From a virus, in the UHGV virus genome UHGV-1360403: a DNA stretch of 42,236 nucleotides. One strand, 5' to 3'. A program made the translations under genes and the position numbers. The notes under the pieces were generated by a model. That model saw only the letters and a program-made list of their open reading frames with translations. It made no database searches and was not told where the DNA came from. Shown piece after piece: positions 1-42,236 of the stretch (position 1 is the stretch's first letter; every line of letters begins with the position of its first letter).

Positions 1-644
1 AGTTTGGTCCAGCTCTGCCCCGGAAACTGTATCGAGTTGAACCAGCGTGAGGTAAACGCGCCGTAAGTGCGCCCGAGACGTTGCCCCTGGTCCACAAACC
101 ACGATTGTCCCCACAAATCTACCAGGCCGTTCGGTGCTGGCGTACCGGTGAGATTTATCCAGCGCCGGACATACTTATGCGCCACTTTGCCCAGCGCCGC
201 CGCGCGCTTACCACCACCGCGCAGCCGGAAGGATTTTAGCCGGGTGCTTTCATCTGGAATGACAGTACCGAACGGCCATCGTTCTCCCAATTCTTCAATC
301 AGCCAGACAAGGTTATCGTAGTTGATGGTGAACACGCTTGCGTTGCTGTTCGTCAGCGCCATAGAGCGCGCTTTGGCATTACCAATAATTGGCTGCACCT
401 CGATATTGCGCAAATGTCCCCACTTCAGTGCTTCATCCGGCCATGTGCTGGCAGCCACGCGCAGCGGCGCGAGGACCAGTGCGGGGCATGTTTCTGCCCC
501 TGCCATAAAGAGATCTTCCAGCGCAGTGAGCGTTGCCACGGTTTTACCCATTCCCATCCCCGCCCAGATGTTGCCGCGCAGGGTTTCGGTTTCGTGGTTG
601 ATAATGAGAACTTGGTAGGGGCGAGGTATATATTTTGGGGGCAT
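1..644 (-). CDS. SNF2-family helicase, N-terminal part (continues at 41486..42236 across the window junction)
   Basis: ATG at 644..642; hand translation MPPKYIPRPYQVLIINHETETLRGNIWAGMGMGKTVATL... with Walker A GMGMGKT, DExx-like IPDES and LTGTP motifs; open to position 1 with no stop. Confidence 0.85.
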   Translation of the reverse strand, partial: MPPKYIPRPYQVLIINHETETLRGNIWAGMGMGKTVATLTALEDLFMAGAETCPALVLAPLRVAASTWPDEALKWGHLRNIEVQPIIGNAKARSMALTNSNASVFTINYDNLVWLIEELGERWPFGTVIPDESTRLKSFRLRGGGKRAAALGKVAHKYVRRWINLTGTPAPNGLVDLWGQSWFVDQGQRLGRTYGAFTSRWFNSIQFPGQSWTK

Positions 645-706
645 ATAATATGGCTCCTAAACAACAAAAGGCCAATTTAGACCTTTTGTTGTTTTAAAAA
701 TGTTAT

Positions 707-1624
707 TTATAATAGTGCTGTTACTATTGCATCTTTAAAAATATTTTCTTCTTCATTTATTAAAGGTGATGACAGATGAATAATTACTTCTTTTCCTGTC
801 AATACTATTTGCTCGACTTGAAATCCTGCGTTGTGTAGTCTTTGGCGTAACTTTTCTAGTGCTGATTTTGATATACTAAATCCTTCACTCCTTATAGTAT
901 AACTGGCAACTCCATTTTTAATAATATCTACAGAGTTGTCAATTTCCTGCTGCGAGTAATTTTTCGGTGAGTCGAAAAATCTGGATTTTGTCGTTGCTGT
1001 TGCCCTAAGAGATATCAATAATGATTTGATATCTTTAATCTCAGATGCCAGATACTCAGTTTCTGATACTTCTTTCTGGTCTAGTTGTGCAACTTTGAAA
1101 GTGCCAAAATGTTTGAGGAATGTTGTGTATTCAGGATCAGTTACTGACTTTAAATATGTTTCTTTTATCTTGCTCGCAAGTCTTTCTTTGAATAAATTGA
1201 TTGATTGGTATCTTAAATCCGAAGGGTACTCTAAATGTTCAATTGATGAAATGTCAAAGCTATAAGGAGTGCGCTCGTCCTTAATAATTACGGTCGGTTT
1301 GTCAAATGCGAGACGCATTCCTAATTCAAACATTACATTAGCGTTTCGAGCACTTATATCGCAAACAACTATGGGGTTTTCATAAAGATTTTGAACAATT
1401 CGTTTTTGTATTACTGCAACATCATCATCTGAACTTACCAAATTTGCCTTGAATCCGGCATCATTTGATGCTTCACAAATAATGTCATGAACATTTCTCC
1501 AATGTCCAGTGGGATAACCTTCTATGTCCGCAATTGGCATAATAATGCCGCATATATGAGGTGGCATATTTTTGTTGTCTTTTACATCATCTTGGTTTAT
1601 TTCTTTCGTTTGTTGCTTAGCCAT
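707..1624 (-). CDS. AT-rich cargo protein (305 aa) with N-terminal TIR-like / nucleoside 2-deoxyribosyltransferase-like Rossmann domain; C-terminal domain unknown
   Basis: Markedly AT-rich relative to flanking genes; motif PIVVCDISARNANVMFELGMRLAFDKPTVII parallels ARQNVVLEMGMLLSSLGRSNVAIL in the 2354..3115 protein. Confidence 0.6.
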   Translation of the reverse strand: MAKQQTKEINQDDVKDNKNMPPHICGIIMPIADIEGYPTGHWRNVHDIICEASNDAGFKANLVSSDDDVAVIQKRIVQNLYENPIVVCDISARNANVMFELGMRLAFDKPTVIIKDERTPYSFDISSIEHLEYPSDLRYQSINLFKERLASKIKETYLKSVTDPEYTTFLKHFGTFKVAQLDQKEVSETEYLASEIKDIKSLLISLRATATTKSRFFDSPKNYSQQEIDNSVDIIKNGVASYTIRSEGFSISKSALEKLRQRLHNAGFQVEQIVLTGKEVIIHLSSPLINEEENIFKDAIVTALL

Positions 1625-1639
1625 AGCTTACACAGACTC

Positions 1640-1924
1640 CTATTGTAATTTTTTGCCTAATATACATGAAAGCTCCTTACTATCCAGTACTACCACGGTA
1701 AAGCCCAGTTTTCGCAGACGTTCATGCTCGCGCAACTGATCAGGTCGTGGTGGTTTGCCTGGTGCTTTGCATTCGACAAAGACGATGCGACCGCCGGGTA
1801 GCAGAACAATGCGATCTGGTACCGAGCGGAGACCGGGAGATACGAACTTAAAGGCAACCCCGCCAGCCTTTTTTACTTCAGCGACGAGGTGCTTTTCGAT
1901 TAGGTTTTCACGTTCATAGGCCAT
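1640..1924 (-). CDS. VRR-NUC domain nuclease
   Basis: 94 aa; AFKFVSPGLRSVPDRIVLLPGGRIVFVECKAPGK pattern typical of VRR-NUC (PD-(D/E)xK) phage proteins. Confidence 0.75.
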   Translation of the reverse strand: MAYERENLIEKHLVAEVKKAGGVAFKFVSPGLRSVPDRIVLLPGGRIVFVECKAPGKPPRPDQLREHERLRKLGFTVVVLDSKELSCILGKKLQ

Positions 1925-2118
1925 TAGCTTTCGCCTTCCTGCTTTTTGCGTTTCTTCATGCAGATAGCGCAGTTCTCAGGATGGTCATGCCATTCGTCAA
2001 TCCTGATACCTGTGAACATCCATTTTCCGCATAGTGATATGGCTTCCCCCGAATTAAAGAAATGTGCTTTTTTCGACAGGGCGGGGAACCCCCAACCTTT
2101 ATTATCGATATTAGACAT
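1924..2118 (-). CDS. Small Cys-containing hypothetical protein (64 aa)
   Basis: ORF ends where VRR-NUC gene starts; C..C/H..C..C spacing suggests a small zinc-binding protein. Confidence 0.45.
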   Translation of the reverse strand: MSNIDNKGWGFPALSKKAHFFNSGEAISLCGKWMFTGIRIDEWHDHPENCAICMKKRKKQEGES

Positions 2119-2290
2119 CGTCCACCTCCTTACGCTTTTCGCGCATGTTCTGCATCAGACAAAAATCAAACCGACGTTCGCTTTGGCCCAGACCTGCATC
2201 GCCCGGTCGTACCCGCTGGACTGTTCAAGGCGCAAAGCCTCCCGTGCAGTCCGGTAATAAAGCGGACTGTCCCGGTATTTAAATGACATA

Positions 2291-2330
2291 GGGTTTTTAT
2301 TCCCAAATAAAAAACCCCGCAATGCAGGGT
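2291..2330 (-). terminator. Intrinsic terminator-like hairpin downstream of the TIR-like gene
   Basis: Minus strand reads CCCTGCATTGCGGGG followed by TTTTTT; the plus strand also forms GGGTTTTT...AAAAACCC. Confidence 0.5.
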
Positions 2331-2353
2331 TGTAATCAACAATAAGGGGGTAA

Positions 2354-3115
2354 TTACGAGGAAGCGTTAGCTATTTGAGCTTGTGTAAATTCGAAACCAG
2401 AATTTTGTAACCGTTGCACTAGACGAGGAACTGTTTCACGTACATGGTCGTTGAAATTCAGATACAAAATCCCGTTAGCATCAGAAGGCTGTTCTAGGTG
2501 CTGTTTCTGAAGGATTGCTACATTGCTGCGCCCTAAGGACGAAAGAAGCATACCCATCTCGAGTACAACGTTCTGTCTTGCGCGGGGTTGGATTTCTGCT
2601 TCACCGGCGCGCTTTGAGTATCCCATATCATCAGGTGTCAAAAGAACAATCCCGAAACGAGTAGCAGTTTGTCCTTGCCCAATTTCACGTTCAAGCTCTT
2701 CAATAATGGTGAGTCCAGTCCCTCCCGTATTCTGCAAAATGAAATGGTCTGGTAATCCAAGTTTATGAAGGATTAGCTCAAGTTGTTCCTTTGCAGTATG
2801 GTCATGGCCGTGAACAATGAATATCTTTTTGGGAAGCTCAGATGGCTGTTCTACGGCTAGTGGTGTTGCCGTGGGGGGCGTTCCTAAATGGGACATTATT
2901 GCAGTTTCAACATTGGGACGTTCTTGAGGGTTCCCTTGAAACTGAATGGTCCGGGTGGTGTAAAGGTTAACAATTACGCCATTCGTTAAACGATAGCAGT
3001 CATAAGTCTCACGCTGTTCGTGGGAAAAATTGGTGAACCCACACTCCCTCAAAAAGTCAGGAAAAGATTCTCTCGGGTATGGATAGTTGATCGGCATTTC
3101 AGTTAGTTCCTGCAT
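2354..3115 (-). CDS. TIR-like domain protein (253 aa): novel ~100-aa N-terminal domain plus C-terminal TIR-like nucleotide-binding domain
   Basis: KIFIVHGHD...GIVLLTPDDMG...ARQNVVLEMGMLLSSLGRSNVAIL matches the 'predicted nucleotide-binding protein containing TIR-like domain' pattern; own terminator downstream; lower G+C than PolA by eye. Confidence 0.65.
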   Translation of the reverse strand: MQELTEMPINYPYPRESFPDFLRECGFTNFSHEQRETYDCYRLTNGVIVNLYTTRTIQFQGNPQERPNVETAIMSHLGTPPTATPLAVEQPSELPKKIFIVHGHDHTAKEQLELILHKLGLPDHFILQNTGGTGLTIIEELEREIGQGQTATRFGIVLLTPDDMGYSKRAGEAEIQPRARQNVVLEMGMLLSSLGRSNVAILQKQHLEQPSDANGILYLNFNDHVRETVPRLVQRLQNSGFEFTQAQIANASS

Positions 3116-3179
3116 AAGTATTGTTCCTTTAATTTACTCGAATTCAGCATGTCGCCATAGCTCGATAAGGTGAGTTATA

Positions 3180-5243
3180 TCAATCTTTTTTGTAGTGGTA
3201 CGCCTCAAAGCCGCCAGCGTTCAGCGGAATATCGGGTGCCCATTCGGGGTTAGTGGAGAGAAGCGCGGAAAGCGCTTTATCGTTGAAATCTTCTGTGTCT
3301 GGTGCTTCGGTGATCACCTCGTCGTGTACCGTTAGCACAATGCTGTAACCGGCACCCTCGATCAGCGGCATGTTTCTGGCTAGAACGTCGCGGGCGGCCG
3401 CCTGGGTGACGTTCTCCACCAGCTTTCCGCCGTAGGTTTTGAGTCGTTGCCATTTACGCGAATAAGAGTTAACACCCATGTAGGTGATATTCCCTTGTTC
3501 GATAACCGGAGACGGGTAGCATACAGCGCGTCCGGATGGTAGCTGTATGCGCAGCCACGCGCCATCACGTCGGATTTTAAGATAGCCGCAATACAATGTT
3601 TTTTGCGGTGTGGCGATTGCTGTGCGGACAGTGCGCTCCAGCTCGTACCAGAAATCGCAGGTCGCCGGGTGCGCCCTGCGCCACAGGCGCTTGAGCGAGT
3701 CACATGCGATGAATACACGCTCGGACAGGCCAAAGGTCGACTTACGCTTAACCGATTCGTCGTACCAGCTTTTTGCCTCGCGGATAACATCGCGGGGAAT
3801 GTTTGGCAGTGCGGCGTTCGCCAGCTCGTCGAGATCGAGACCGTAAACCAGAGCAAAAGTGATGAAAGCCGATACACCACCTCCATAACCCAGACCGAGT
3901 TCCATGACTTTACCGATCTGACGCATGTGTTTATCAACATCATCTGGTGCAATATCGAAAGCTTTTGCATACGCCAGTTTATATAAGTCCGGACCCGTTC
4001 CAGCGTCATACTCTCTGAATGCATTCAGTTTCCATTCTTCTCCCGCCAGCCATGCCAGCATACGGCCTTCAATGTTTGACAAGTCACTTACCACTAGTTT
4101 TTTGCCTGTTGGCGCGATAATGCAGCCACGTAACGCTGAACTGGTTAGTTCCATGATATTGTCAAACAGCAGGTCTGCACATCCGGCTTTCAGTGCTTCG
4201 ATGCCTTCGTCTATTTGTTCCTGTTTTAGTGAAGGGCGGGGAAGGTTCTGGGGCTGGAATAGCCGTCCGGCCCAACGACCGGTACGTGACGCCCCGCAGA
4301 ACTGTAGCGTACCGCGTAAGCGCCCGTCGTGGCTTACGCCTTTCATCAGTGCCTTGTATTTACTGGTGCTGGTAGTACTGGCTTGCAGGCGGATAGCCAG
4401 CAGTTCTTTCACGGCAGATGATAAATCGGGGTCGGCCATACGACGTTCCAGGGTACTGCGTTGCATGTCTGGTAGCTCCACACCGTAGGATTCAACGATG
4501 TGCTTAATCAACGCGTCCCGTTGTGTGGCTGCCTGCACTTCGCCATCAGTCATTTCCTGTGTACGCTTTGCCAGGCGCTTTTGCTCCTGGTCTACCGCTT
4601 CGATCGCAGCGCGCGCGAGTTGCATGTCCATGCAGACGCCCCGGTCGTTGATCTGCTGATCACGATGCCAGAGCGCCAGCTCTGTCCCCTGATAATTCCA
4701 CTTCGGCAGACGTTTATAGACTTCACGCATTGCTTCGATATCCAGTCCGGCGTAAGCAACAAAGCGCCGCCATTCTTCCGGATGGGTTTTACTGGTGGCC
4801 CGACGCAGTTTGCTGTTTTTCGGACGTGGCTTACAGAACAGCTGGATCAGCGCTTTACCTTCTTTGTCCTTCGCTTTGTCTTGCGGGACGCCTAGTACTT
4901 CGCAGAGTTCCCCCAGAGACCCCGGGAGACCGTGCGCCAGCGCCTGCACCATCGTGTCGCGCCAACGTTCGACTGGCGGTGCCAGTCGCGGCATTGCATA
5001 ACGCAGAACGGTGCGGTCGAAGTGAGAGTTATGGAAATAAAGCAGGGTTTCAGGGTCTGCGATTGCTTCGTATAAGCCGTGTGGAATACCACCACCGGCA
5101 GTGATATCCCACACGTTTACTGGCCCGTCGTTGATAGCCCATGCGAAAAGCATCACTTCAACGCCTTCGGCATACGCATGGGTACCGTTCGTAATAGGGA
5201 TTTCGCAATAGGTTTCCAGGTCGCCCCATAGTATATTGGACAT
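3180..5243 (-). CDS. Family A DNA polymerase (PolA-like, with 3'-5' exonuclease region)
   Basis: 687 aa; N-terminal exonuclease-like region and C-terminal polymerase region (...[14 protein letters not shown]..., ...[11 protein letters not shown]...). Confidence 0.85.
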
Positions 5244-5289
5244 GTGTTTACCTAGGTTTTTATTCTATTAACTGATTAAAAGATTAATT

Positions 5290-5919
5290 ATGCATATGAT
5301 CCAATACTTGATTGACCATACAGAGCATCTGGAGAAAATAGCTGGATATATTTTTTCATGTTTGATTGTTATGGGAGTCTGGATAAGAAAGATCATTTTT
5401 AATTATAAGTATAAAGAGCCTAAATATGTCAAGAAGTTAATTTTATATTTAATTAAGTATGAACGTTATCTGGATAAGGAGGATAAGAAAGCCATAGAAA
5501 AAAGAATAAATGATAAAATTATTCGTGATGCGCTGAAATTGCAATCCTCTTATAACCGAAGAGATGTTATTTACATTTGCAATAGATTAGAAAAAAGACA
5601 GTATATAAATCAGTTGATTAAGCTTCAGAATTATATAGAGAAAGATAACGGAGTGTTTTTTATTAATGTTGATTTTTCAGGTTTTTTATTTATTATTAGT
5701 CGTCTGTTTTCCTTTCTGTGTTTTGTGCTGTTTACCCTTTTTTCTATTATCTGCATTATTTCCATAGGGCAAAATGAAGGCCTTTTAAATTATCTTGTGT
5801 ATATGGTTATGATAATAGTTTTAGAGACTGTTGGTTTTTGGATGTATGATACTTTCCCGTCTAAGAAAAAGATCTGTGAACTAAATAAAGAATTGAGAAA
5901 GATTAAGATTCCTGAGTGA
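5290..5919 (+). CDS. AT-rich Lys-rich membrane protein (209 aa, about 3 predicted TM helices), opposite strand to the replication operon
   Basis: Very AT-rich ORF; hydrophobic stretches IAGYIFSCLIVMGVWI, FLFIISRLFSFLCFVLFTLFSIICIISI, LVYMVMIIVLETVGFWMY. Confidence 0.6.
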   Translation: MHMIQYLIDHTEHLEKIAGYIFSCLIVMGVWIRKIIFNYKYKEPKYVKKLILYLIKYERYLDKEDKKAIEKRINDKIIRDALKLQSSYNRRDVIYICNRLEKRQYINQLIKLQNYIEKDNGVFFINVDFSGFLFIISRLFSFLCFVLFTLFSIICIISIGQNEGLLNYLVYMVMIIVLETVGFWMYDTFPSKKKICELNKELRKIKIPE

Positions 5920-5937
5920 TTATACGCCTAATCAGTA

Positions 5938-5956
5938 GCCCGGTGTTTAACCGGGC
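5938..5956. terminator. Hairpin between convergent genes (possible bidirectional terminator)
   Basis: GCCCGG-TGTTTAA-CCGGGC inverted repeat; no clear T-tract. Confidence 0.3.
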
Positions 5957-5971
5957 GTCTATGAAGTAGGG

Positions 5972-6520
5972 TTAAATTAGTGCTTCAGCATCAGCACCTT
6001 CGCTGATATCGTCGAAATCGTCAGCGCTTGCCACTCCGCCGCCAGCGAATGCATCGCCGTCTCGCAGGAACTGGACTCCGCCGAGTGAGGCATTAATGCG
6101 TTTACCGAAATTATTGTCCTGTGCCCAGATATCGATAACGGCGTTTACATAGCACCCTGCATAAGGACGTCCGTCAGCCTGAATAAGTGGCGAACGATCG
6201 CGATCAAGAACAGCTGGGCGCGCTTTGTTAGCAGCATTCAGGAAGAAATTGCCGGGGAAGCCTTCATACTCTGCTTTTTCATCACCATCATGCAGGCACA
6301 GATTGAGTTTTTTCTCCAGCTGGTTATAAATGGGCTCCCACTTCTCTCCCCATTTTTCCTTCGCTACCTGCTTCATAGCTTTACGGATTTCTTCCAGTTG
6401 TGGGTGTTTGGGAGACATTAAAAATACTGCGGAGAAACGCGGATCGCCTTCGCCGTTTACAGTTTTAGCTTCAAACAGAGACGGGAAGGCCAGACGAACA
6501 TTGTTCAGCTTCAGTTTCAT
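5972..6520 (-). CDS. DUF2815-like phage ssDNA-binding protein
   Basis: N-terminus MKLKLNNVRLAFPSLFEAK and acidic C-terminal tail (DDFDDISEGADAEALI), typical of this replication-module family. Confidence 0.75.
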   Translation of the reverse strand: MKLKLNNVRLAFPSLFEAKTVNGEGDPRFSAVFLMSPKHPQLEEIRKAMKQVAKEKWGEKWEPIYNQLEKKLNLCLHDGDEKAEYEGFPGNFFLNAANKARPAVLDRDRSPLIQADGRPYAGCYVNAVIDIWAQDNNFGKRINASLGGVQFLRDGDAFAGGGVASADDFDDISEGADAEALI

Positions 6521-6535
6521 GGGTATTTCCTTAAA

Positions 6536-7837
6536 TCAGATGAGGTCTGCGGTTAGCGTATCGTCGGATACGTCGTCGAAATCATTTACAGGGTTGATAT
6601 TGAGTGCGGGGCGTGGGTCTGACTCGGGAACGACGGTTGGTTTACCATCAGCTCGTGTTATCAGTGCCTCGACTTTTGACCAACGGCGTGGACTGGCCTT
6701 TTTGATAAGTTTTTCGGCTTTTGTGGGACTAATAAGTTTAAAGTCGAATACTTCTTCAGTTTTGTACCTGAACTGGTCCTTCAGAAGTGCGCGAGCTGCC
6801 TCTTCATCACTCCAGGCCCGGTTACCTTGTTTTCCTGTTACCAGTTTAAACCCCGGTACCGGATGTCCGGCATTGAGTTCATTGTGAACCCGGTCCCGTA
6901 CTGCCTTTAGCCAGGACTCAATAAAGTCGGCCTGGCTATAGATCTCCGCAAGCTGCTCAATGGTTAACAGAGGTACACGTGCGCTGGCATTGGTGATTAT
7001 TTCGCTGACAGGCTTTGTCAGATCTTCAAAGTCGCTGGCCGCTGTTTGTAAATGCTGCATTTTCTGGGCAGTGCAAATAGCTTTTGCTTTACAGAAGCGG
7101 CACTGCTTTTCTCCAGGTATGAAGTTTTCCAGCGGTAGTGTCTCAATGCCTTCGCATTCAGCAATATTGAGAACAAGGATCGCACTGGTTGCGGCCTCCT
7201 GTGCTCGTTTACCGAAAGACTGAAGTTCCTGCACGGTTAACGACCATTCTGAAACGTGGTTGAGCCTTGGCTGGTGAATAAATAATCTTACAGTCTCAAA
7301 GTCATACAGCATGCTGAATTGTTCGAGAGCACCCAGAGCATACAGTTGTAGTTGCTCATTTTGTTCTGCATCAATGCGGACGCCTTTGCCATATTTCAGG
7401 TCGTGGATTTGTAATTCGCTACCAGCGATGATTATGCCGTCGGCAGTTCCGAAAGATTCTTCCACACCCGTTATATGTGAGAAATCAACACGTTGTTCAA
7501 CCAATAGTTCATTATTCTGTGCAAGAGTCCAGACCGTATCAACATACCGGCCAACGGCTTCGACCATTTCATCATCCACCTGTGGGCCAGATGTATCATC
7601 AGGATTTTCGCGAAGGGGGTATGAGCCGAGAAACATAGAAACATTGCATCCGGCGTAGTGTTCCGGGTGGCTTTGCCTGTTTCGTAGAACTTTTTCAGCA
7701 AGCGCGTGCGCTGCAGTGCCCTCGATTGCAAAAGTTGTTTCTTTATCCGGTTGTGTGGCCTCCAGCGCCAGACTTCCTGGGCAGCGCATCCATCGATGCG
7801 CTGATGATGGAGAAAGTTGTGCATGAACGTCTGGCAT
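6536..7837 (-). CDS. DUF2800-like PD-(D/E)xK nuclease (Cas4-like, C-terminal Cys cluster)
   Basis: [16 protein letters not shown]-terminal signature; C-terminal [10 protein letters not shown] cysteine cluster. Confidence 0.75.
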
Positions 7838-7839
7838 GA

Positions 7840-8742: not shown

Positions 8743-8888
8743 ACTGTGGTCCTCGCTACAAGGAGAATGAAAGTGATGATCAGACCGAGCGCAGTGGCAA
8801 CGGCCAGACCGGTCATCAAATCGAAGTTTTTACGGCGATAACGGAGAACATCGCGCCCCGTCAGTCGATAGAGGTGTTCAGGTTTCAT
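8739..8888 (-). CDS. Small membrane protein (49 aa), translationally coupled to the next gene
   Basis: Hand translation [49 protein letters not shown]; its TGA overlaps the ATG of the 7840..8742 gene (ATGA). Below the ORF-track length cut-off. Confidence 0.4.
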   Translation of the reverse strand: MKPEHLYRLTGRDVLRYRRKNFDLMTGLAVATALGLIITFILLVARTTV

Positions 8889-33236: not shown

Positions 33237-33589
33237 TGCGATACAGACGTGAAGACGCCGATGGCGATTACACCTTTGGCAGCGGTGATGACACCTGGCT
33301 GATTAACTCACCGGAGGCCGTGGCGCAGGCGGTAAAAACGCGATTCGAATTGTGGTATGGGCAATGGTTTCTCGACACCACCGAGGGGACTCCGTGGATC
33401 CAGTCCGTACTCGGTAAGCAGAAGCCGGAAACCTACAACCTGGCGATCCGTAAGCGCATCCTCGAAACGCAGGGCGTTAAATCAATCCTCTCTTTCAATA
33501 CGACGCTGGATACCACGACCCGACGTGTCATGTTTTCCGCTGAAATCGACACTCTTTATGGAATAACGACTGTTACATCGGAGGCGTAA
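33236..33589 (+). CDS. Baseplate protein (gpW/gp25-like position)
   Basis: 117 aa between V-like and J-like genes. Confidence 0.45.
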   Translation: MRYRREDADGDYTFGSGDDTWLINSPEAVAQAVKTRFELWYGQWFLDTTEGTPWIQSVLGKQKPETYNLAIRKRILETQGVKSILSFNTTLDTTTRRVMFSAEIDTLYGITTVTSEA

Positions 33590-34788
33590 TGGCTCTGAAC
33601 CTTGATTCTCTCGGTTTATCTGCAAAGGTAACCGCGGAGGGGATCAGTGCGCCTGATTATCAGACGATACTCAGCACCCTGATTAGCTATTTTCAGCAGA
33701 TTTATGGCAGTGATGCCTACCTCGAACCGGACAGCAAAGACGGCCAGATGGTGGCTCTGATGGCGCTGGCGATTCATGATGCCAATAATACTGCGATAAC
33801 TGTCTACAACTGTTTTTCACCGGCAACCGGCTATGGGGCTGCACTGACCTGTAACGTGAAAATAAATGGTATTTCACGTAAAGGCGCGACGAACTCTACG
33901 GTTGATTTGCTTCTTACAGGAACTGCCGGAACAACCATCATTAATGGCAGCGTGAAAGACAGTAATAATGTGATATGGCGTTTGCCTGCTTCAGTGGTGG
34001 TAGGCGTGGATGGTACAGTGATGGTGACCGCAACATGTTCCGTCAGTGGTGCAGTGGCGGCGCTGGCTGGAACTATCACTGAAATTAATACGCCAACCCG
34101 TGGCTGGGTTTCGGTAACCAATCCTGCTGCAGCCACTGTGGGCACTCCGGCAGAAACTGACGCTGAGTTACGTATCCGCCAGTCGCAAAGTGTTGCGTTG
34201 CCATCAATAACCCCATTTGAAGCACTGGATGGTGCTGTTTCTAATGTTACCGGTGTAACCCGCCACAAACTCTATGAAAACGATACTGGTTCGGAGGACG
34301 GTAACGGGTTACCGCCACACTCTGTTGCTGTAATTGTGGATGGCGGTGATGTAACGGATATTGCTCAGGCTATCAGAGGGAATAAAGGCCAGGGGACAGC
34401 CACTCACGGTACAACATCCGTTACGGTTCCGGATAAATACGGCAATCCCCATGTAATCAAATTCTCGCGTTCCAGTGATGTGCCTGTTTATGCCCTGATT
34501 AAATTAAAAGTTTTTACGGGTTATACCTCACAGATAGGGCAGCAGATCCAGCAGGCTATTTCCGACTATATCAATAGTCTGATGATTGGTGATTCGGTCC
34601 TTTTAAGTCGCATTTACTCACCGGCGAATCTTGGCGTGGTGAGTGGCGGGAATGCACGCTATTACGATATTCAGGAACTGACGATTGGGAAATCCCCGGG
34701 GGCTTTGTCGTCATCAAACATTGATATCAGATACAACGAATCTGCGTCCTGTACCCCGAAAAATATCGTTATAACGGTGGAGTCATGA
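33589..34788 (+). CDS. Baseplate J-like protein
   Basis: 399 aa at the conserved position and size for baseplate J. Confidence 0.7.
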   Translation: MALNLDSLGLSAKVTAEGISAPDYQTILSTLISYFQQIYGSDAYLEPDSKDGQMVALMALAIHDANNTAITVYNCFSPATGYGAALTCNVKINGISRKGATNSTVDLLLTGTAGTTIINGSVKDSNNVIWRLPASVVVGVDGTVMVTATCSVSGAVAALAGTITEINTPTRGWVSVTNPAAATVGTPAETDAELRIRQSQSVALPSITPFEALDGAVSNVTGVTRHKLYENDTGSEDGNGLPPHSVAVIVDGGDVTDIAQAIRGNKGQGTATHGTTSVTVPDKYGNPHVIKFSRSSDVPVYALIKLKVFTGYTSQIGQQIQQAISDYINSLMIGDSVLLSRIYSPANLGVVSGGNARYYDIQELTIGKSPGALSSSNIDIRYNESASCTPKNIVITVES

Positions 34789-35465
34789 GCAAATACACCG
34801 AACTAATCACGAACTACCACGCCACCAAACCTAAATTTCTTGCGCATGTTGATCTGATGACCCGGCCACTTATTGATGTTGCGGCTGCCACCAGAGGGCT
34901 GATTAGTGCATTTGATATTGACTCTGCGGTTGGTGTGCAACTTGACATCCTTGGATTGTGGATCGGACGTAGCCGTGTTGTCAGCCAGCCTATCTCAGGT
35001 GTCTATTTCAGCTGGGATACCGACGGGCTTGGATATGATCAGGGGGTATGGCAGGGACCATACGATCCTGATTCAGGATACATGTATCTCAGCGATGAAA
35101 CTTATCGTGTCATTCTTAAAGCGAAGATTGCGATTAATAACTGGGACGGACGGAATGATTCGCTTCCGGCAATTCTTGACGCGGCAACAGCAGGATCCGG
35201 GCTGCGAATGCAGATAGTCGATAACCAGGACATGACGATATCGGTCTGGGTCTTTCCTGATACTGATATTTCAGATGTATCGCGTGAGTTAATTGCGGCA
35301 ATTAAACAGGGGTATCTCACAGTAAAAGCCGCCGGGGTATGGGCGGGTGGCATTGAAACACCTTCGGTGGAAACCCCATCGGAAGGCTCAAAATTTTTTG
35401 GTTTTGATATGGATAACGAATTCATCAGTGGTTTTGATGTAGGAGCATGGGGAGTATTACTCTGA
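34785..35465 (+). CDS. Baseplate/tail protein (gpI-like position)
   Basis: 226 aa, coupled to the J-like gene and preceding the tail fibre. Confidence 0.5.
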
Positions 35466-36259
35466 TGGCGAAAAATGACTTTAAAGCGTTTGCAACGGAT
35501 CGAAATGCCAATGTTATATCGCAGGAGGAATGGGAAGCGTTGCCCGCGCTTTTATCTGGATTTACAGCAGGGAAAGCCTCCAGTGCGCAAGTCAATAAGG
35601 TTATTCGGCAGGCCAGCTTTATTGCTGCAGCTCTGGCCCAGTTTGTAAGTGATAAAACGCAACGGGATGTGCTTGATAATGGTGATCTGCCCGGTTTTGT
35701 TGAATTGCTGGGATCGGGGTTTGCTGTTGAATACCTGAGCCGCAAGAATCCGTTTGGCGATATCAAATCGGACGGCACGGTGAAAACAGCTCTCGAAAAC
35801 CTTGGTTTGGGAGAAGGTGCCCCAGCTATTGGCGTTCCGTTCTTCTGGCCGTCCGCTGCAATGCCAAATTCTGTCATCGACAGCTGGTCCGGTATGGTGT
35901 TTTTGAAGTTTAACGGGGCGAAATTTTCTGCCTCTGATTACCCTGTGCTGGCGAAAGTGTTTCCTTCGCTGGTATTACCTGAAGCCCGCGGTGATTTCAT
36001 TCGTATCTGGGATGACGGGCGAGGTGCAGACGGTGGTCGCGAATTATTAAGCTGGCAGGCAGCTACAAACTTTTCTCAGTTTGCCGGGAATATAGGCGAT
36101 GGTGCGGGCCACACAATTAATTTTCATGATGGTATCGCCGGAAATCAGCCAGGATTTTCACGATTTAATTTCACCAGTAACTCTGTGGGTGATGGTGTGA
36201 ATTTTGTTGCCGTCAGACCGCGAAATATTGCATTTAACTTTCTGGTGAGGGCTAAATGA
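35447..36259 (+). CDS. Tail fibre protein (constant N-terminal part to codon 123, then variable C-terminal part Sv in the current orientation)
   Basis: 270 aa; tail-collar-like segment [41 protein letters not shown]; inverted-repeat crossover site inside at 35802-35816. Confidence 0.7.
35802..35816. repeat. Left inverted repeat of the invertible tail-fibre segment
   Basis: TTGGTTTGGGAGAAG; perfect reverse complement at 37611-37625; encodes (N)LGLGE in the fibre. Confidence 0.7.
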
Positions 36260-36852
36260 TGACCCCAATTTTTGATGAAAATGGACTGGCTACAGTGCCG
36301 GGCGATATGCGTTGTTTTTATTATGATGCTGAAACATCTGAGTATACGGGCTGGTCTGATGAATATATTAATACTGGCGTAAGTATGCCCGCCTGTTCCA
36401 CTGGAATTAACCCTGGCGAAAACATTCCGGGAAAAGTGGCTGTATTTACAGGTAAGGGATGGAGCCATGAAGAGGACCATCGCAATGAGACTGTTTACTC
36501 AATCGAAAATGGCGCAGCTGTTACAGTGGATTATATCGGTGCCATCAAAGATGGTTATGTCACGCTTTCACCGTTAACGCCATACGATAAATGGGATGGT
36601 GAGAAATGGGTGACGGATACCGAGGCACAGCATAGCGCCGCAGTAGACGCGTCAGAAGCACAGCGCCAGTCACTGATTGATGCAGCAATGGCTTCCATTA
36701 GTCTGATTCAGCTGAAATTACAAGCCGGGCGGAAACTGACGCAGGCAGAAACAACCCGGCTTAACGCTGTGCTGGATTACATTGACGCGGTGACGGCAAC
36801 AGATACCAGCACCGCGCCGGATGTCATCTGGCCTGAACTGCCGGAGGCGTAG
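36256..36852 (+). CDS. Tail fibre assembly protein (Tfa/U-like)
   Basis: C-terminal ...[26 protein letters not shown] is a typical Tfa signature. Confidence 0.75.
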
Positions 36853-37264
36853 GCCATTCAATATCTGGCGCACCGGAAGTATCGACCAGTTCCAGTGCGT
36901 CCAGATAATCCAGCCACAAATTATATTGCACCAGTTCCTCACCTTTCAGGCGACCAATCGCCGCTTTACCAGGCCATTGCTTACTGTTTATGTATTCGTT
37001 GACCTGATTAATCAATTGCTGCTTTTTCAGTTCGGCTGCGGCAATTTGTTCCTCATGAGTTGGCGGTGGAATATCAATCCATGCAGGCATTCCGTCGATG
37101 ACACCTCTGTATTTTCCTTCTGGTGCTTCCTTCATAAATTCGGCAGCAACAGTGTCGTCAATTTCGATTCCATCATCGGGCCATTCGCCGGATTCCTGAT
37201 AAGCGATTTTAAGCTCCACAGGGAAAAACGCATTTTTATCGGCACTGAAAATATATTTCTGCAT
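36824..37264 (-). CDS. Alternative tail fibre assembly protein (U'-like), inverted orientation
   Basis: C-terminal ...[29 protein letters not shown]; convergent with and overlapping the plus-strand Tfa. Confidence 0.7.
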   Translation of the reverse strand: MQKYIFSADKNAFFPVELKIAYQESGEWPDDGIEIDDTVAAEFMKEAPEGKYRGVIDGMPAWIDIPPPTHEEQIAAAELKKQQLINQVNEYINSKQWPGKAAIGRLKGEELVQYNLWLDYLDALELVDTSGAPDIEWPTPPAVQAR

Positions 37265-37266
37265 TT

Positions 37267-37625
37267 CTACCGTCCTATCGAAATATAACTGAATCTGTAT
37301 TGCTGTGAGATATCACTGGTTGCCACACGCCACGCTGAATTACTGATATGTTCAAAATTTACAGACAAAACCTGCGGGGCAGGATTCGACGGGTCTGACT
37401 GAACGGCATCAGACATAACACTGACTGAAATCATCGGCTGATTAGGGAATGGTATAGGGAAGTGTCCACTGATAAAGCGGGTCGTGTTTCCTGAAAAAGT
37501 GCCAAACTGAACAATATATCCACCTGGTAGCCTGAACCATCCCGAACCAGAAGCGAATGCTCCCATATCCGGTATCTGATTATCTCCTGTGCCCACATTC
37601 CGTTTTGCCGCTTCTCCCAAACCAA
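37267..37625 (-). CDS. Alternative tail-fibre C-terminal cassette (Sv'-like), expressed only after inversion
   Basis: Minus-strand ORF reads ...INVGLGEAAKRNVGTGDNQ... through the right inverted repeat, sharing GLGE with the fibre at the crossover; the upstream ATG (37665) is probably fortuitous. Confidence 0.55.
37611..37625. repeat. Right inverted repeat of the invertible tail-fibre segment
   Basis: CTTCTCCCAAACCAA, reverse complement of 35802-35816; flanks agree at 5 of 7 further positions. Confidence 0.7.
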
Positions 37626-37691
37626 CGTTTATGAAAATGCAGAAATAACGAGCAAATGGCATCATTCCTGCTTTTGTCAGAGGGATCCACT

Positions 37692-38006
37692 ATGCTTATT
37701 GGCTATGTACGTGTGTCAACAAATGACCAGAACACAGATCTACAACGTAATGCGCTGAACTGTGCAGGATGCGAGCTGTTTTTTGAAGACAAGATAAGCG
37801 GTACAAAGTCCGAAAGGCCGGGACTGAAAAAACTGCTCAGGACATTATCGGCAGGTGACACTCTGGTTGTCTGGAAGCTGGATCGGCTGGGGCGCAGTGT
37901 GCGGCATCTTGTCGTGCTGGTGGAGGAGTTGTGCGAACAAGGTGTTAATTTTAGTAGTTATGTTATTACAGGTGGGGGATTTCTCCCCCTTATGCAGATT
38001 TTCTAG
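37692..38006 (+). pseudogene. Serine DNA invertase (Gin/Hin/Pin/Cin family), 3'-truncated
   Basis: MLIGYVRVSTNDQNTDLQRNAL...DTLVVWKLDRLGRS...GVNF matches the catalytic domain of Gin-type invertases; similarity stops near 37952 and the ORF ends after an unrelated 17-aa tail; no C-terminal HTH. Confidence 0.75.
37974..37989. repeat. Short GC hairpin at the junction between the invertase remnant and the low-GC island
   Basis: GGGGGA-TTTC-TCCCCC. Confidence 0.4.
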
Positions 38007-38010
38007 TTAA

Positions 38011-38856
38011 CTATTGGCGAAGTGGCCATATTTTTCTGTTTTTTAAAAAACTATCTTCAACTATATAACTGCAACAATGTTCACTAAGGCCATAAAAACT
38101 AATTATTCCATATTTATGAGAAGCTATATCAGACAGTTCTGCTAATACTGTGGCAAGCCAACGAGCGATGCTAAGAGAATAGAATCTTCCCCACTTTTGA
38201 ACAATGGTATTTTGTCCAGTACGGATGGAGGCTGATATAAGGTCTTGCATAATGTTGGTACTTTCATTCATATACATGACCGTTGTATACGGTGAAAGAG
38301 TGGCATTGATAAACCTAGCATTTTCTTCAACACGTCTTTGTTCAACTGTATAATAATAATGTTTTTCAAGGATACTCTCGGCTACTTCTCCCCACCATTT
38401 ATTAATAGGTTCATTATTGGTTAAATTGGGGCTGCTTAATGAGGAGAAATTTGCGTAACGTCCCCGTCGGGCATCAGCAAAGGAATCTAAACATTCAAGT
38501 ATTTTGTAGGTAATTTTATGTGTAGGACGTGAATATCTCAGAGATAGTTGCATTTTTTTAGAAATACTATCAACCTCGTTGGTTAATTCAATGAGCTTAT
38601 GTCCAAATTTTCTTACAATATTCTCATCAGGCATTTTCCCTTTGTGTTCAATGGCATAGTGTGCAACAAGTATTAGTTTAGCAAGTCTCTCAAAACCTAC
38701 AGAAAGCCCAAAAAATGCTGTGTAATATTCACCTATTTTGTCTGCATAATTGGCTTTACCTATGGCTGTTGCCCCAGAACCAATGAGCTGTGTAACTAAA
38801 GATGCTTCTCGGCCCAGAGCGTGCCATGCTGGAATATCCCAGGGATTTTTATTCAC
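38011..38856 (-). CDS. AT-rich cargo protein (281 aa), function unknown
   Basis: Long AT-rich ORF in an AT-rich block that interrupts the invertase; R-x5-H (RYSRPTH) noted but not diagnostic. Confidence 0.55.
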   Translation of the reverse strand: MNKNPWDIPAWHALGREASLVTQLIGSGATAIGKANYADKIGEYYTAFFGLSVGFERLAKLILVAHYAIEHKGKMPDENIVRKFGHKLIELTNEVDSISKKMQLSLRYSRPTHKITYKILECLDSFADARRGRYANFSSLSSPNLTNNEPINKWWGEVAESILEKHYYYTVEQRRVEENARFINATLSPYTTVMYMNESTNIMQDLISASIRTGQNTIVQKWGRFYSLSIARWLATVLAELSDIASHKYGIISFYGLSEHCCSYIVEDSFLKNRKIWPLRQ

Positions 38857-38984
38857 TTTATTATTTTCCTTTGCTCATAAATTTAAATTGTTTGAGTATC
38901 TCATAAAATATAAGGAGATGGTTAAGGTTGTTGATCGCATATAATAGCTATTGAAAGTCAAGAACTCGGTTTTATGTTCTACCA

Positions 38985-39023
38985 CTAATTAATATATTGT
39001 GAGTTTGACAATATATTAATTAG
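38985..39023. repeat. Perfect 16-bp inverted repeat with 7-bp spacer
   Basis: CTAATTAATATATTGT-gagtttg-ACAATATATTAATTAG. Confidence 0.6.
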
Positions 39024-39157
39024 TATGATCAAACCAGCCATCAACTGATTCCTTGTATCTTTCAGAGTCTCCAGAACAAAAGCCTTAACGAATTCCTTAT
39101 TTGTGAGTGCCTTACCAAAAGCCCATTGTTGCAGGGAACGAGTATAAAACTCGCCAG

Positions 39158-39424
39158 CTACTGGAGCAGGCTACCTGATTGTCGATCGATTCCTGCGTCC
39201 ATATAGTCGATGGTCTTCTGGAGCTCTTCGATTAGGGCAATAGCTTTTGCTCGAGAAATGCATATTAGTTGATCCGGAAATTCTTGTAAGGGCCAGTTTG
39301 GTATACAGGCCATGTTATCAGTGAAGGATGCAGACAAGTAAACTTCATTGGTAACTAGGGAATAGCTTACCTCAAAATTGGTGAGTTCCGGCAAACTGCT
39401 AACGTTTGATTCTTTTCTGCGCAT
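39158..39424 (-). CDS. Hypothetical protein (88 aa) in the AT-rich island
   Basis: ORF only; no recognisable motif. Confidence 0.35.
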   Translation of the reverse strand: MRRKESNVSSLPELTNFEVSYSLVTNEVYLSASFTDNMACIPNWPLQEFPDQLICISRAKAIALIEELQKTIDYMDAGIDRQSGSLLQ

Positions 39425-39568
39425 AATATTATCCAGGACTGTAATTATGTACAGTTAATGGTCTTCAATTTCGAAGAGGGAGTCAAGGGGGAGTCTCAAA
39501 TGAACCTTTATAGAAAGGGGAGCTCTTTGTGTTGCTGAACGTATGCAAAATTTTTTTGCACCATAAAT

Positions 39569-39592
39569 TCAATAACACATTCAATAACACAT
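39569..39592. repeat. Tandem 12-bp direct repeat in an AT-rich non-coding region (candidate attP arm site)
   Basis: TCAATAACACAT x2; adjacent GCAAAATTTTTTTGC near-palindrome at 39545-39559. Confidence 0.45.
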
Positions 39593-39894
39593 TACTGCAT
39601 CACCATGAAAATAAATGTATTTTTATTTAATTTCACACATATCACAATTAATACAGCGTTTAGTAATTAGTAAAGACATTTCAATGAATTACCGTTAAAT
39701 CATTTTAAAAATCAGTAAGTTGTATCGAGTTTGTATGCTTTACTGTCATTAACTTACTGTATGTTGATCCAGTGTATTTAACCTTGATAAACTCAGTCCA
39801 GTAACACAAAGCCGCAACACATTGCATTTTGTCCCGTAGAAAAGACTTGTATGTGTGTGCTTGTTTTCTGCGCCTACGCAGATAAGGATTGAGA

Positions 39895-41292
39895 ATGCCG
39901 CGCACTGTAACACATAATCCGGATAGCCCCAATAATGACGATGTTTTAGCCGCATCTGAAAAATGGGACGCCTGTAAACCCCCCTATACCAGCGCACACA
40001 TGAAAATCTGTGTTGCTGCCGCCAAAATCATCCTCGCTGCTTCCGGCGTGGCTCGCCGTTCCAAATACGAAAAAGAGAACTATCTCCGTATCGATTTCAG
40101 CAAAGCCGGTAAGGTTACATTTTACGCCGAGTTTCCAAAAAAGATGGGCCTCAAAGGTAAAAAGCTCGGCGAGTGGCCGGAGCTCGCTATCCAGCTGGCG
40201 CGCGAAAAAGCGCTAGGTATGGCTGACGGTGGCCTGCGGGCAGAGTCCGTACATGCAGCGCTGGAAATGTACCGGGATGACCTCAAAGCCAAAGTCGCCC
40301 GGCAGAAGCTGAGCCCGGACAGTTTCACAACCTACGGGGTGCGTATCGACCGGATTAAAGCAACGTTCGGCGAGCGCGAGGTGTTCAGCGACGTAACATA
40401 CAATCGGCTGGTGGAAGTGCTGGACGAGTGGATCGCTACTCGCTCGAACAATAACGCCCTGGAGTTGTTTGCCGAGCTCCGTCGGTTCTGGAAGTTCTGC
40501 GCACCTACTCTTTGCAACGGCCGCAATGTTGCCGCCAGTCTGCCAGATGATTATGTTTCCTCCCGCGTACAGAAACCTACCCCCACACGGCTTTTTACCG
40601 ATATTGAATCAATCGCCCGACTCTGGCTCAATGTTGCTGCCTGCACCTCTGTACACCAGAAGAATGCTGTTCGCTTCATGATCATCACTGGTGTTCGTCC
40701 GATTAATGTCCATAACCTGCGCTGGGACTACGTTCACGAGGAGGCTGGTGAAATTGTTTATCCGGAAGGGGTTATCGGCATGCGAGGGGCTATGAAAACA
40801 CAAAAGGCTTTCCGCCTGCCGATAACCCCTGAGATCCGGCGGATTATCGACGAGCAGAAAGCCTGGCGTGATTCAGTTCCTGAGTGCAACAGGGATTATG
40901 TATTTTTGCAGCCACGTGATCCAATGCAGCCATTTTCAAAACGATCACTGGATAAGCTGGTGAAAACATACAGCCCGGACGGGGCTGTAAAAGGAATAAA
41001 ACATGATGGGACTGTTAAAGGGAAAGACGGTGCATTTAATACGATGTGCCGTAAATTCCTTAAGAGCAATGTTATTGCCTTGATGAAGGAAAGAGGCTAT
41101 TCCCGCTCAGACCGAAGGGAAATCAGCCTCCTTTGCCTTCACCACTCCAGCAAGTCAGATGACCCGATGGCAGAACATTACGACTTTTCTGATGAGATTT
41201 TACAGGAAGAGATTGCGTTGAAGCGCGAAGCTTTCGAGGCTCACGAGCGGAGCATACTTGCGCAGGTGGCATTGCTACGGCGGCGAGGTTAA
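39895..41292 (+). CDS. int: Tyrosine integrase (P4/CP4-like family)
   Basis: Catalytic-domain pattern ...IITGVRP... (box I Arg), ...MKTQKAFRLP..., ...LLCLHHSSKSDDPMAEHY (His and catalytic Tyr); ATG at 39895 with AAGGA 7 nt upstream. Confidence 0.8.
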   Translation: MPRTVTHNPDSPNNDDVLAASEKWDACKPPYTSAHMKICVAAAKIILAASGVARRSKYEKENYLRIDFSKAGKVTFYAEFPKKMGLKGKKLGEWPELAIQLAREKALGMADGGLRAESVHAALEMYRDDLKAKVARQKLSPDSFTTYGVRIDRIKATFGEREVFSDVTYNRLVEVLDEWIATRSNNNALELFAELRRFWKFCAPTLCNGRNVAASLPDDYVSSRVQKPTPTRLFTDIESIARLWLNVAACTSVHQKNAVRFMIITGVRPINVHNLRWDYVHEEAGEIVYPEGVIGMRGAMKTQKAFRLPITPEIRRIIDEQKAWRDSVPECNRDYVFLQPRDPMQPFSKRSLDKLVKTYSPDGAVKGIKHDGTVKGKDGAFNTMCRKFLKSNVIALMKERGYSRSDRREISLLCLHHSSKSDDPMAEHYDFSDEILQEEIALKREAFEAHERSILAQVALLRRRG

Positions 41293-41489
41293 TACTGGCT
41301 GCGACATTTTTGAATAAAAGCGTCGATATTTCGGCGCTCATAACGAACTACTTTTGCACTGAAACGAATTGGTGCCAGGATAGCCCGATGACGATGCTTA
41401 ATATTCCACTCACATAGCGTTTTCTGTGTAATACCTAACTTTTGGCATACTTCATCCGGGGTGAGTAAATCGTCGGGTTTCTCGCTCAT
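41289..41489 (-). CDS. AlpA/excisionase-like small HTH DNA-binding protein
   Basis: 66 aa; LLTPDEVCQKLGITQKTLCEW HTH; start ATG overlaps the helicase stop (ATGA), stop overlaps the int stop. Confidence 0.6.
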   Translation of the reverse strand: MSEKPDDLLTPDEVCQKLGITQKTLCEWNIKHRHRAILAPIRFSAKVVRYERRNIDAFIQKCRSQY

Positions 41490-42236
41490 GCTATACCTCT
41501 CTTTTTCATGGCATCGAGCAGGATGTCCTGCACTGTTCGTTTTGAGTTGCGCCGCTCCATCACCATTTCATCCATAGTGTCGGCAGCAATAATGTGGTGA
41601 ATAAATACCGGACGATTGTGTCCGGCCTGTATCTGCCTGGTGGGGCCGATACGTTCAATAATTTGCTGATATTGCTCCAGGTCCCACCAGTGTGAGAAAA
41701 ATACCAGTATATTTCCGCCGTCCTGCATGTTCAGGCCGTGGCCCGCGCTGGCTGGGTGTGCAAAGAGAACAGGAATCTTTCCGGAATTCCAGTCGCGCAG
41801 TGTCTGTGGATCCTGGTCGAGGTGACGACCGCGAGGGAATGCTTTAAGCAAGCGTTCAAGATCGTGTTTCCAGTGATAAGCAACCAGCACAGGTGCGCCA
41901 GCTGCTTCGGTCAGTATGCTGTCCAGCGCCTGTAGTTTGGTGTCATGCAGTTCTGACCAACTTCCGGTGTCATCTGTGTATACTGCGCCGCTGGCGATTT
42001 GCAGACACTTCAGTGTCTTTGCCGCGGCGTTCGGTGCTTCGATGCCTTCGCCATTCAGCTCGAGGAACATTTCCTTTTCCATTTCACGATACTGCTGACG
42101 GGCCTTCGGTGGCATATCCACGCGGATTACGTTATGGATGGGGTCTTTGATATCGAACCAGTCGGCCGCATCCAGCGAGAGGGTTACATCGGCTAACGCT
42201 CGCTGTATTTCACCCTGTGAGTGAGCAAAAGGCTCC
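41486..42236 (-). CDS. SNF2-family helicase, C-terminal part (5' portion is 1..644 across the junction)
   Basis: Helicase C-domain motifs (...VLFAHPASAGHGLNMQDGGNILVFFSHWWDLEQYQQ...); reading frame open to the window end and continuous with 1..644. Confidence 0.85.
   Translation of the reverse strand, partial: EPFAHSQGEIQRALADVTLSLDAADWFDIKDPIHNVIRVDMPPKARQQYREMEKEMFLELNGEGIEAPNAAAKTLKCLQIASGAVYTDDTGSWSELHDTKLQALDSILTEAAGAPVLVAYHWKHDLERLLKAFPRGRHLDQDPQTLRDWNSGKIPVLFAHPASAGHGLNMQDGGNILVFFSHWWDLEQYQQIIERIGPTRQIQAGHNRPVFIHHIIAADTMDEMVMERRNSKRTVQDILLDAMKKRGIA

Follow-up and report, generated by a model that had tools for sequence, protein, structure and literature searches.

The window, by which we mean the whole 42,236 bp stretch of DNA that was analysed, contains phage replication, packaging, virion and integration genes lying between two partial open reading frames, both on the minus strand, at its extreme ends. 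Its main features are given below; positions prefixed with L001 refer to the locus with the prophage of the E. coli chromosome NZ_AP022003.1.

1..644, minus strand: 5' part of an SNF2-family helicase gene, consisting of codons 1-214 and the CT of codon 215, with the ATG at 644..642 (L001 7025..7668)
1640..13339, no strand assigned: replication and immunity module, including VRR-NUC, a TIR protein, a family-A DNA polymerase, DUF2815 and DUF2800
16317..16889, plus strand: terminase small subunit (Pfam Terminase_2, E 6e-31)
16892..18514, plus strand: terminase large subunit (PHROG 2; PDB similarity in the C-terminal half)
18514..37665, plus strand: virion module (PGAP annotation of the identical prophage; DNA similarity to phage SEN34)
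39632..39649, no strand assigned: attP core, 18 bp, TTCACACATATCACAATT, identical in attP, attL, attR and attB
39632..39679, minus strand: copy of yfhL codons 1-16 carried by the phage (MSLLITKRCINCDMCE, compared with MALLITKKCINCDMCE in the host)
39895..41292, plus strand: tyrosine integrase of 465 aa (PF00589, 30.4 bits against a cut-off of 27.1)
41289..41489, minus strand: 66 aa HTH_17 protein, a candidate excisionase or regulator (phrog_4745, with weaker matches to the excisionase PHROGs 66 and 1553)
41486..42236, minus strand: 3' part of the helicase gene, consisting of the G of codon 215, codons 216-464 and the TGA at 41488..41486 (L001 6274..7024)

The virion module encodes a portal protein (DUF1073), a head morphogenesis protein, capsid proteins, a tape measure protein and baseplate components, together with a contractile tail composed of a DUF3383 sheath and a DUF3277 tube, and tail fibres having an invertible end segment. 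Upstream of this, the large terminase subunit had no matches in Pfam or NCBIfam, the only informative evidence being its assignment to PHROG 2 and its similarity to proteins in the PDB; there, residues 249-521 match Sf6 gp2 (4idh, E 5e-27), and the only other match is to the nuclease domain of the phage E217 TerL protein (E 3e-33). The replication and immunity module additionally encodes CI-like and Cro-like HTH proteins and a DUF5906 protein, a relative of which is annotated as a 'replication protein' on plasmid pE76_003. The ATG of the 66 aa HTH_17 protein overlaps the stop codon of the helicase gene, in the arrangement ATGA.

The first-pass annotation proposed that the partial reading frames at either end of the window are the two parts of a single helicase gene, and this proved to be the case. 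The frame running from 644 to 1 closes on the dinucleotide CT, to which position 42236 contributes a G, thereby forming the CTG codon of Leu215; beyond this point the frame remains open as far as the TGA at 41488..41486, whilst the remaining two frames of the 3' region contain many stops. Joining and translating the two parts (644..1 and 42236..41486) gives a 464 aa protein with no internal stops, and the in-frame join is far beyond chance. This protein is 100% identical to WP_001551511.1, annotated as an SNF2-related protein of E. coli prophages, which is its counterpart on the chromosome NZ_AP022003.1. The motifs expected of an SNF2-type helicase are found at residues 31 (GMGKT), 131 (DEST) and 166 (TGTP), with the motif VI-like sequence QQIIERIGPTRQ at residue 405. 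The Pfam SNF2-rel_dom profile (PF00176) matches residues 29-185 with a score above its curated cut-off (41.9 bits compared to 24.9, E 8e-11), and the Helicase_C profile (PF00271) matches residues 315-412 with a score slightly below its own (21.9 bits compared to 23.5).

That the gene is uninterrupted across both ends of the window is further supported by alignment to its homologues and by the chromosomal copies. The joined protein had no specific insertion or deletion at the junction relative to 112 homologues, and the column containing Leu215 is occupied by leucine, isoleucine or valine in 111 of the 113 sequences (the query and the homologues, 455-475 aa in length). At the DNA level, 24 complete E. 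coli chromosomes each hold an uninterrupted match to a 2,400 nt query across the junction, at least 22 of them at 100.0% identity, and an exact 40-mer over the junction was present in 10 IMG/VR contigs. A 2 kb junction query aligned without gaps, at 85-100% identity, to 20 of 21 junction-spanning loci, the one exception (L020) having gaps in its alignment. In all the independent copies studied, the two ends of the window are adjacent. The window has no direct repeat of 5-399 bp at its ends, hence no assembler overlap or DTR has been left in the record. Lying beside VRR-NUC, the family-A DNA polymerase and the DUF5906 protein, the helicase would appear to be an ordinary member of a phage replication module.

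In lysogens the element is found in the 5' end of yfhL, with attL and attR on either side. The window was aligned to the locus with the NZ_AP022003.1 prophage in two gap-free blocks, 1..39669 corresponding to L001 7025..46693 and 39632..42236 to L001 4420..7024, such that the core TTCACACATATCACAATT links the right end of the prophage to the left. The left arm of the resulting attP is that of attR and its right arm that of attL, with the core between them, and the spacing between attL and attR (46656 - 4420 = 42,236 bp) is exactly the length of the window. The two sequences are identical over 39632..42236 and, the att region aside, differ at a single position over 1..39631. Since these two alignments place every base of the window between attL and attR, an integrated prophage with flanking host DNA is ruled out, in agreement with the original observation that no host genes flank the phage. 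Some host-like sequence is nevertheless present in the window, as attP holds a diverged 48 nt copy of the 5' end of yfhL.

This copy rebuilds the yfhL reading frame at attL following integration, the phage-supplied start introducing the substitutions A2S and K8R. The region upstream of yfhL is then phage DNA, presumably including its promoter; a sigma-70 consensus scan of 39400..39950 found no minus-strand site, and a total number of sites no greater than that in shuffled sequence. The integrase adjoins yfhL in all ten of the neighbourhoods among the matches listed, which were the longest contigs and consisted of chromosomal, integrated copies. Amongst 5,426 complete E. coli genomes, yfhL is occupied in 160, in each of which the attP query is split at the core, and the reconstructed empty attB is present in 5,266, the remaining 160 equalling the number that match the attP halves. 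All 288 places matched in these complete genomes are chromosomal, with none on a plasmid. The use of yfhL as a prophage integration site has been published previously (PMC3603311, PMC12029490), with the gene listed amongst those 'disrupted' by integration (PMC3603311).

No second copy of this phage with a contiguous attP was found in the collections searched. An exact 55-mer of attP, and then a 37-mer, were absent from IMG/VR, JGI metagenome contigs and GTDB genome contigs. A 601 bp attP query was never contiguous in the 5,426 complete E. coli genomes, no place covering 80% or more of it. The sole match to this query in PLSDB was a diverged relative on the 76.9 kb Enterobacter plasmid pE76_003, which is in the attP-contiguous order but rearranged, and interrupted by IS26, IS3 and ISKpn21; it looks like a decayed cointegrate. 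The 449 nt on the integrase side of the junction query were missing from all INPHARED phage records, and the window itself was absent from that collection.

It is very likely (with a probability of around 0.9) that the window represents the complete, unit-length 42,236 bp genome of a temperate E. coli myovirus, in circular order, linearised arbitrarily within the SNF2 helicase gene. The intact attP and the length of exactly one unit bear out the initial interpretation of a full circular or circularly permuted genome opened inside a gene, and recombination within the 18 bp core can be shown to give exactly the attP of the window and exactly its length. From the sequence, we infer that the source molecule was itself physically circular or permuted. 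It may have been the circle excised by Int and Xis, along with its replicating descendants; alternatively, it may have been circularly permuted and terminally redundant virion DNA, generated through headful packaging from concatemers by the Sf6 gp2-like large terminase subunit and the small subunit of the Terminase_2 family. Whichever it was, an assembler would probably have closed the reads into a circle, trimmed the overlap and opened the sequence at a biologically meaningless point. Because the large terminase resembles Sf6 gp2, the choice between these two sources leans towards headful packaging.

A different origin for the same sequence would be a one-unit slice through a tandem array, in the form of either head-to-tail prophages at yfhL (attL-phage-attP-phage-attR) or a replicative concatemer. 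The ends of the window and its att mapping fit such an array equally well, as a matter of logic, given that an exact slice of one repeat would also hold attP, and its two ends would be in frame with each other. Nevertheless, we regard this as highly improbable: the 160 complete E. coli genomes with the element all lack a contiguous attP, and a length that is 42,236 bp to the base, without any overlap, is typical of circularising software rather than of an arbitrary window. A concatemer would, in any case, be the replication product of the circular form, and so differ from it in wording only. It is also very unlikely that the record was made in silico, through a prophage being cut from a chromosome assembly from attL to attR and then rotated by software. 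The difference from the NZ_AP022003.1 prophage at a single position outside the att region is compatible with this, as is the absence of independent attP-bearing contigs from all the collections searched, and the database 'phage' records ON470579 and its relatives are plainly prophage cut-outs. However, the usual automated cut-outs retain tadA, yfhB and yfhH, lose the integrase and do not have attP, whereas the boundaries of the window are exact to the base and its attP is correctly recombined; nor is it usual for a record to be given a new origin midway through a gene. Even were this the origin of the record, the sequence would still be that of the real excision product.

The phage might instead have been maintained in its source strain as an autonomous, circular plasmid-like prophage, rather than having been integrated and then excised or packaged. 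Among its genes are those for a family-A DNA polymerase of its own, a DUF5906 protein and the SNF2 helicase, and its relative on the Enterobacter plasmid has the attP-contiguous order; yet that relative is broken by IS elements and has the appearance of a decayed cointegrate, no partition or plasmid maintenance genes were seen in the annotation of the window, an integrase, a candidate Xis and attP are all carried, and the 288 of 288 matches in complete E. coli genomes are chromosomal. This possibility is consequently scarcely credible. A broader proposal is that the window is the only correct attP-bearing version of this phage, widespread in E. coli, among the collections searched, that for appreciable periods the phage exists as a free circular replicon served by its own polymerase, DUF5906 protein and SNF2 helicase, and that its integration exchanges the 5' end and upstream region of yfhL for phage sequence. 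We consider this combination unlikely, though if it were correct, the phage sequence upstream would place yfhL, a host ferredoxin gene, under phage-derived control.

The chance opening of the sequence inside the helicase gene is an ordinary outcome of assembling or storing circular or permuted phage genomes, and no new biological principle is raised. For annotators, the implication is that the window is a whole genome in which the terminal partial reading frames constitute one gene and nothing is missing; the analysis also defines the attP core exactly and places the integration site in yfhL. The same genes, encoding the same helicase protein in essentially identical sequence, are found in the yfhL prophage at 1337419..1379654 of NZ_AP022003.1, present in ST38-type strains and others, but in such chromosomal copies the genes run in the linear order of the integrated form, with the break at the att core, whereas the window is the attP-bearing circular permutation of exactly one unit. 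The element has also been deposited as Escherichia phages vB_EcoM-606R2, vB_EcoM-611R5, vB_EcoM-689R2 and vB_EcoM-683R1 (ON470579, ON470588, ON470582 and ON470593, respectively), and a literature search on vB_EcoM-606R2 returned no match. These GenBank 'phage' records are imprecise prophage cut-outs in the integrated linear order; as they retain the host genes tadA, yfhB and yfhH and have no integrase, the window is a better reference for the phage.

Amongst phages that have been studied, the closest is Salmonella phage SEN34 (Brunovirus; KT630649/NC_028699), a temperate myovirus with an integrase, induced from S. enterica subsp. diarizonae (PMC5261728). SEN34 and the window have related virion modules, extending from terminase to tail fibres, with 81% DNA identity across 62% of a query covering 15000..39900; the comparison and the likeness to Brunovirus apply to this interval only. 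The replication and regulation region of SEN34 was described as lambda-like, with a replication protein O amplicon (PMC5261728), and the module of family-A polymerase, DUF2800, DUF2815, VRR-NUC, SNF2 and DUF5906 proteins in the window appears to be different. No packaging sequences were assigned to SEN34 in that study (PMC5261728).

The similarity to Sf6 extends over the C-terminal half of the large terminase only (residues 249-521, matching gp2), and the phage described here is a myovirus rather than a podovirus. Sf6 packages its DNA by a headful (pac) mechanism, giving virion DNA that is circularly permuted and terminally redundant, as established by Casjens and co-workers, and assemblies of headful phages close into circles that are opened arbitrarily. 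The arrangement at yfhL has its parallel in phage 21 and e14 at icd, these being temperate phages whose attP supplies a substitute for the end of the coding gene into which they integrate. In the same manner, the attP described here includes a diverged end of a host gene, with the reading frame rebuilt upon integration; unlike in phage 21 and e14, it is the 5' end of the gene, the first 16 codons of yfhL, that is replaced, and not the 3' end.

The two ends of the window each carry part of one gene on the minus strand:

1..644, minus strand: 5' part of the helicase gene, from the ATG at 644..642, leaving a partial codon, CT, at position 1
41486..42236 (the last 751 bases), minus strand: 3' part of the helicase gene, ending in the TGA at 41488..41486; position 42236 is the third base, G, of the split codon

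Only one minus-strand frame is open across 41486..42236, that fed by the G at 42236, the other two being rich in stop codons. Joined end to start, the ORF is 1395 nt long (464 codons), with CTG, encoding Leu215, at the junction. In Pfam, residues 29-185 of the joined protein score 41.9 bits for the SNF2-related domain (cut-off 24.9), while residues 315-412 score 21.9 bits for Helicase_C, slightly below the cut-off of 23.5. On the N-terminal side of the junction are the helicase motifs GMGKT (31), DEST (131) and TGTP (166); on the other side is QQIIERIGPTRQ at residue 405, which resembles motif VI. The first-pass annotation had described these ORF ends, their shared frame, the CTG codon and the motifs, and was correct in all details.

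As an in-frame join would occur by chance in one case in three, independent copies were sought. A 2400 nt query, made by placing the final 1200 bases of the window before its initial 1200, was found unbroken in 24 complete E. coli chromosomes, of which at least 22 match it at 100.0% identity; all are annotated across the junction as 'SNF2-related protein' or 'DEAD/DEAH box helicase'. An exact 40-mer spanning the junction is present in 10 IMG/VR contigs, and a 2 kb junction query aligned without gaps, at 85-100% identity, to 20 of the 21 junction-spanning loci fetched; the alignment to the remaining one, L020, has gaps. The joined protein is identical to an annotated 464 aa product (WP_001551511.1) encoded at 6274..7668 of L001, the yfhL prophage region of E. 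coli WP3-W18-ESBL-08 (NZ_AP022003.1). Thousands of homologues were retrieved from 5.8 billion proteins, and among the best 120 most are 460-470 aa long with coverage of 98-100%; in a MAFFT alignment with 112 of these, the column of residue 215 contains L (78), I (29) and V (4), next to the conserved positions K/R214, E216 and P217, and the joined helicase has no indel of its own there. Since the independent copies are contiguous and the alignment shows a continuous gene, the outcome named beforehand as contrary to a genuine join, a duplication or gap at the junction, is excluded.

BLAST alignment of the window with L001 gives two gapless blocks, which abut at the helicase junction (L001 7024/7025) and overlap at window 39632..39669:

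window 1..39669: L001 7025..46693
window 39632..42236: L001 4420..7024

An 18 bp core, TTCACACATATCACAATT, is identical at window 39632..39649, L001 4420 (the left prophage site, attL) and L001 46656 (the right site, attR). To the left of the core the window follows attR, and to the right attL, in both cases phage DNA; hence the window carries the phage site, attP. The distance from attL to attR (46656 - 4420) is 42,236 bp, exactly the length of the window, which outside the att region differs from the prophage only at position 11618. No host DNA is present at either end of the window, and no terminal repeat was found in it. Together these features indicate that the window holds the phage genome exactly once, in circular order, supporting the earlier view of a complete circular or permuted genome lacking host flanks.

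Recombination between attL and attR within the core yields a circle of exactly 42,236 bp with exactly the attP of the window, on which the window ends are neighbours. The sequenced reads would have come either from this circle, replicating after excision, or from virions. Headful packaging, as in Sf6, produces circularly permuted, terminally redundant DNA, which also assembles as a circle. The small terminase subunit belongs to the Terminase_2 family; the only PDB matches to the large subunit are Sf6 gp2 (E = 5e-27, residues 249-521) and the phage E217 TerL nuclease domain (E = 3e-33). This leans towards permuted virion DNA without being decisive, because the Sf6 gp2 match spans half of the protein and the packaging signals of the related phage SEN34 were not found by its authors (PMC5261728). 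With either source, the opening point is without biological meaning; it lies about 2.6 kb away from attP and, measured round the circle, about 17 kb from terS.

A one-unit slice of a tandem dilysogen or concatemer would look identical to the window, but we regard this as very unlikely: each of the 160 complete E. coli genomes matching the attP query is broken at the core, and a length of exactly one unit, with no overlap at all, suggests the work of circularisation software. That the record is a prophage rotated in silico would fit the absence of a second attP-bearing copy from IMG/VR, the JGI metagenomes, GTDB, complete E. coli genomes and PLSDB; this too is very unlikely, as known automated cut-outs of this element are imprecise, while the boundaries of the window are correct to the single base. 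Four near-identical GenBank records (ON470579, ON470582, ON470588 and ON470593), though labelled complete phage genomes, are such cut-outs, running past attR into the host genes tadA, yfhB (pgpC) and yfhH, ending on the other side at the helicase stop codon, and lacking the integrase and Xis-like genes. A plasmid-like lifestyle is also very unlikely: in complete E. coli genomes the 288 places matched are all chromosomal, and the sole plasmid-borne relative, on pE76_003, is broken by IS26, IS3 and ISKpn21. The split gene is thus what ordinarily follows when a circular or permuted phage genome is written out linearly, and is no biological novelty; an annotation should join the two end fragments as a single gene and regard the genome as complete.

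The prophage lies between yfhL, encoding a 4Fe-4S ferredoxin, and yfhH. An empty site rebuilt from the left host arm, the core and the right host arm was found unbroken in 5266 of 5426 complete E. coli genomes, in some at 100% identity; the remainder equal in number those matching the attP query. Insertion at yfhL has been listed by Bobay et al. (PMC3603311), who describe the gene as 'disrupted', and for Stx2b prophages (PMC12029490). The attP carries, at 39632..39679 (minus strand; upstream region to 39894), the first 16 yfhL codons in diverged form. Integration rebuilds the ORF with the changes A2S and K8R behind an upstream region composed entirely of phage DNA, in which a simple sigma-70 scan found no promoter, and orphans the native 5' end at attR.

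The gene map draws on PGAP annotations in the identical prophage, together with scans against Pfam, PHROGs and NCBIfam:

39895..41292: integrase
41289..41489, minus strand: small HTH_17 protein, candidate excisionase
across the window ends: SNF2 helicase
VRR-NUC, TIR protein, family-A DNA polymerase, DUF2815, DUF2800
CI-like and Cro-like regulators
DUF5906 protein, with a relative on pE76_003 annotated 'replication protein'
antiterminator Q and lysis cassette
terminase small and large subunits, DUF1073 portal, head genes
contractile tail, baseplate, tail fibres with an invertible end segment

Within the replication module, a stand-alone 253 aa TIR-domain protein (2354..3115, minus strand) has matches to CAP12-PCTIR_TIR in Pfam (E = 3e-31) and to PDC-S35, a candidate defence gene in PADLOC (E = 1e-108), and may be a prophage-encoded anti-phage gene. 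The nearby ANR-family regulator gene (2111..2289, minus strand) is marked as frameshifted by PGAP in the identical prophage and is intact in the Enterobacter relative. Just past the helicase start codon lies a variable cargo slot (approximately 645..1640), near which alignments with diverged prophages break (approximately 608-630). Here it holds a 305 aa ORF (707..1624, minus strand; about 40% GC), whose PHROG matches are all of unknown function and which weakly matches a TIR effector in PADLOC (E = 1e-6); other lysogens have a TfpB-like 265 aa protein, a Phage_pRha protein, or 195 aa or 292 aa ORFs. Three AT-rich ORFs, 5290..5919 (plus strand, opposite to its neighbours), 38011..38856 and 39158..39424 (both minus), have 35-39% GC, compared with a genome value of 49%. 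None matches Pfam or PADLOC, and the first and last have only PHROG matches of unknown function; they look like morons.

In the invertible region (35797..38006), a 20 nt inverted repeat, AAACCTTGGTTTGGGAGAAG, at 35797-35816 and 37611-37630 brackets two oppositely oriented sets of tail-fibre tip and assembly genes, and resembles gix/hix crossover sites. As the serine invertase gene next to this region is cut short (116 aa; 'missing C-terminus' in PGAP), the host-range switch may be locked, or dependent on an invertase supplied in trans.

The phage on the 76.9 kb plasmid pE76_003 of Enterobacter sp. E76 (CP042502.1, 11470..51834) is about 86-88% identical in the integrase-helicase region. It retains the attP-contiguous order, tail fibre, invertase, attP, integrase, which shows that genes of a diverged phage naturally follow this order on the circle. 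Its attP, with a variant core, also has a yfhL-like 5' fragment. The Salmonella phage SEN34 (Brunovirus), a temperate myovirus (PMC5261728), shares the virion module at 81% DNA identity over 62% of the 15000..39900 query; however, the replication module appears to differ from that of SEN34, which its authors called lambda-like (PMC5261728).
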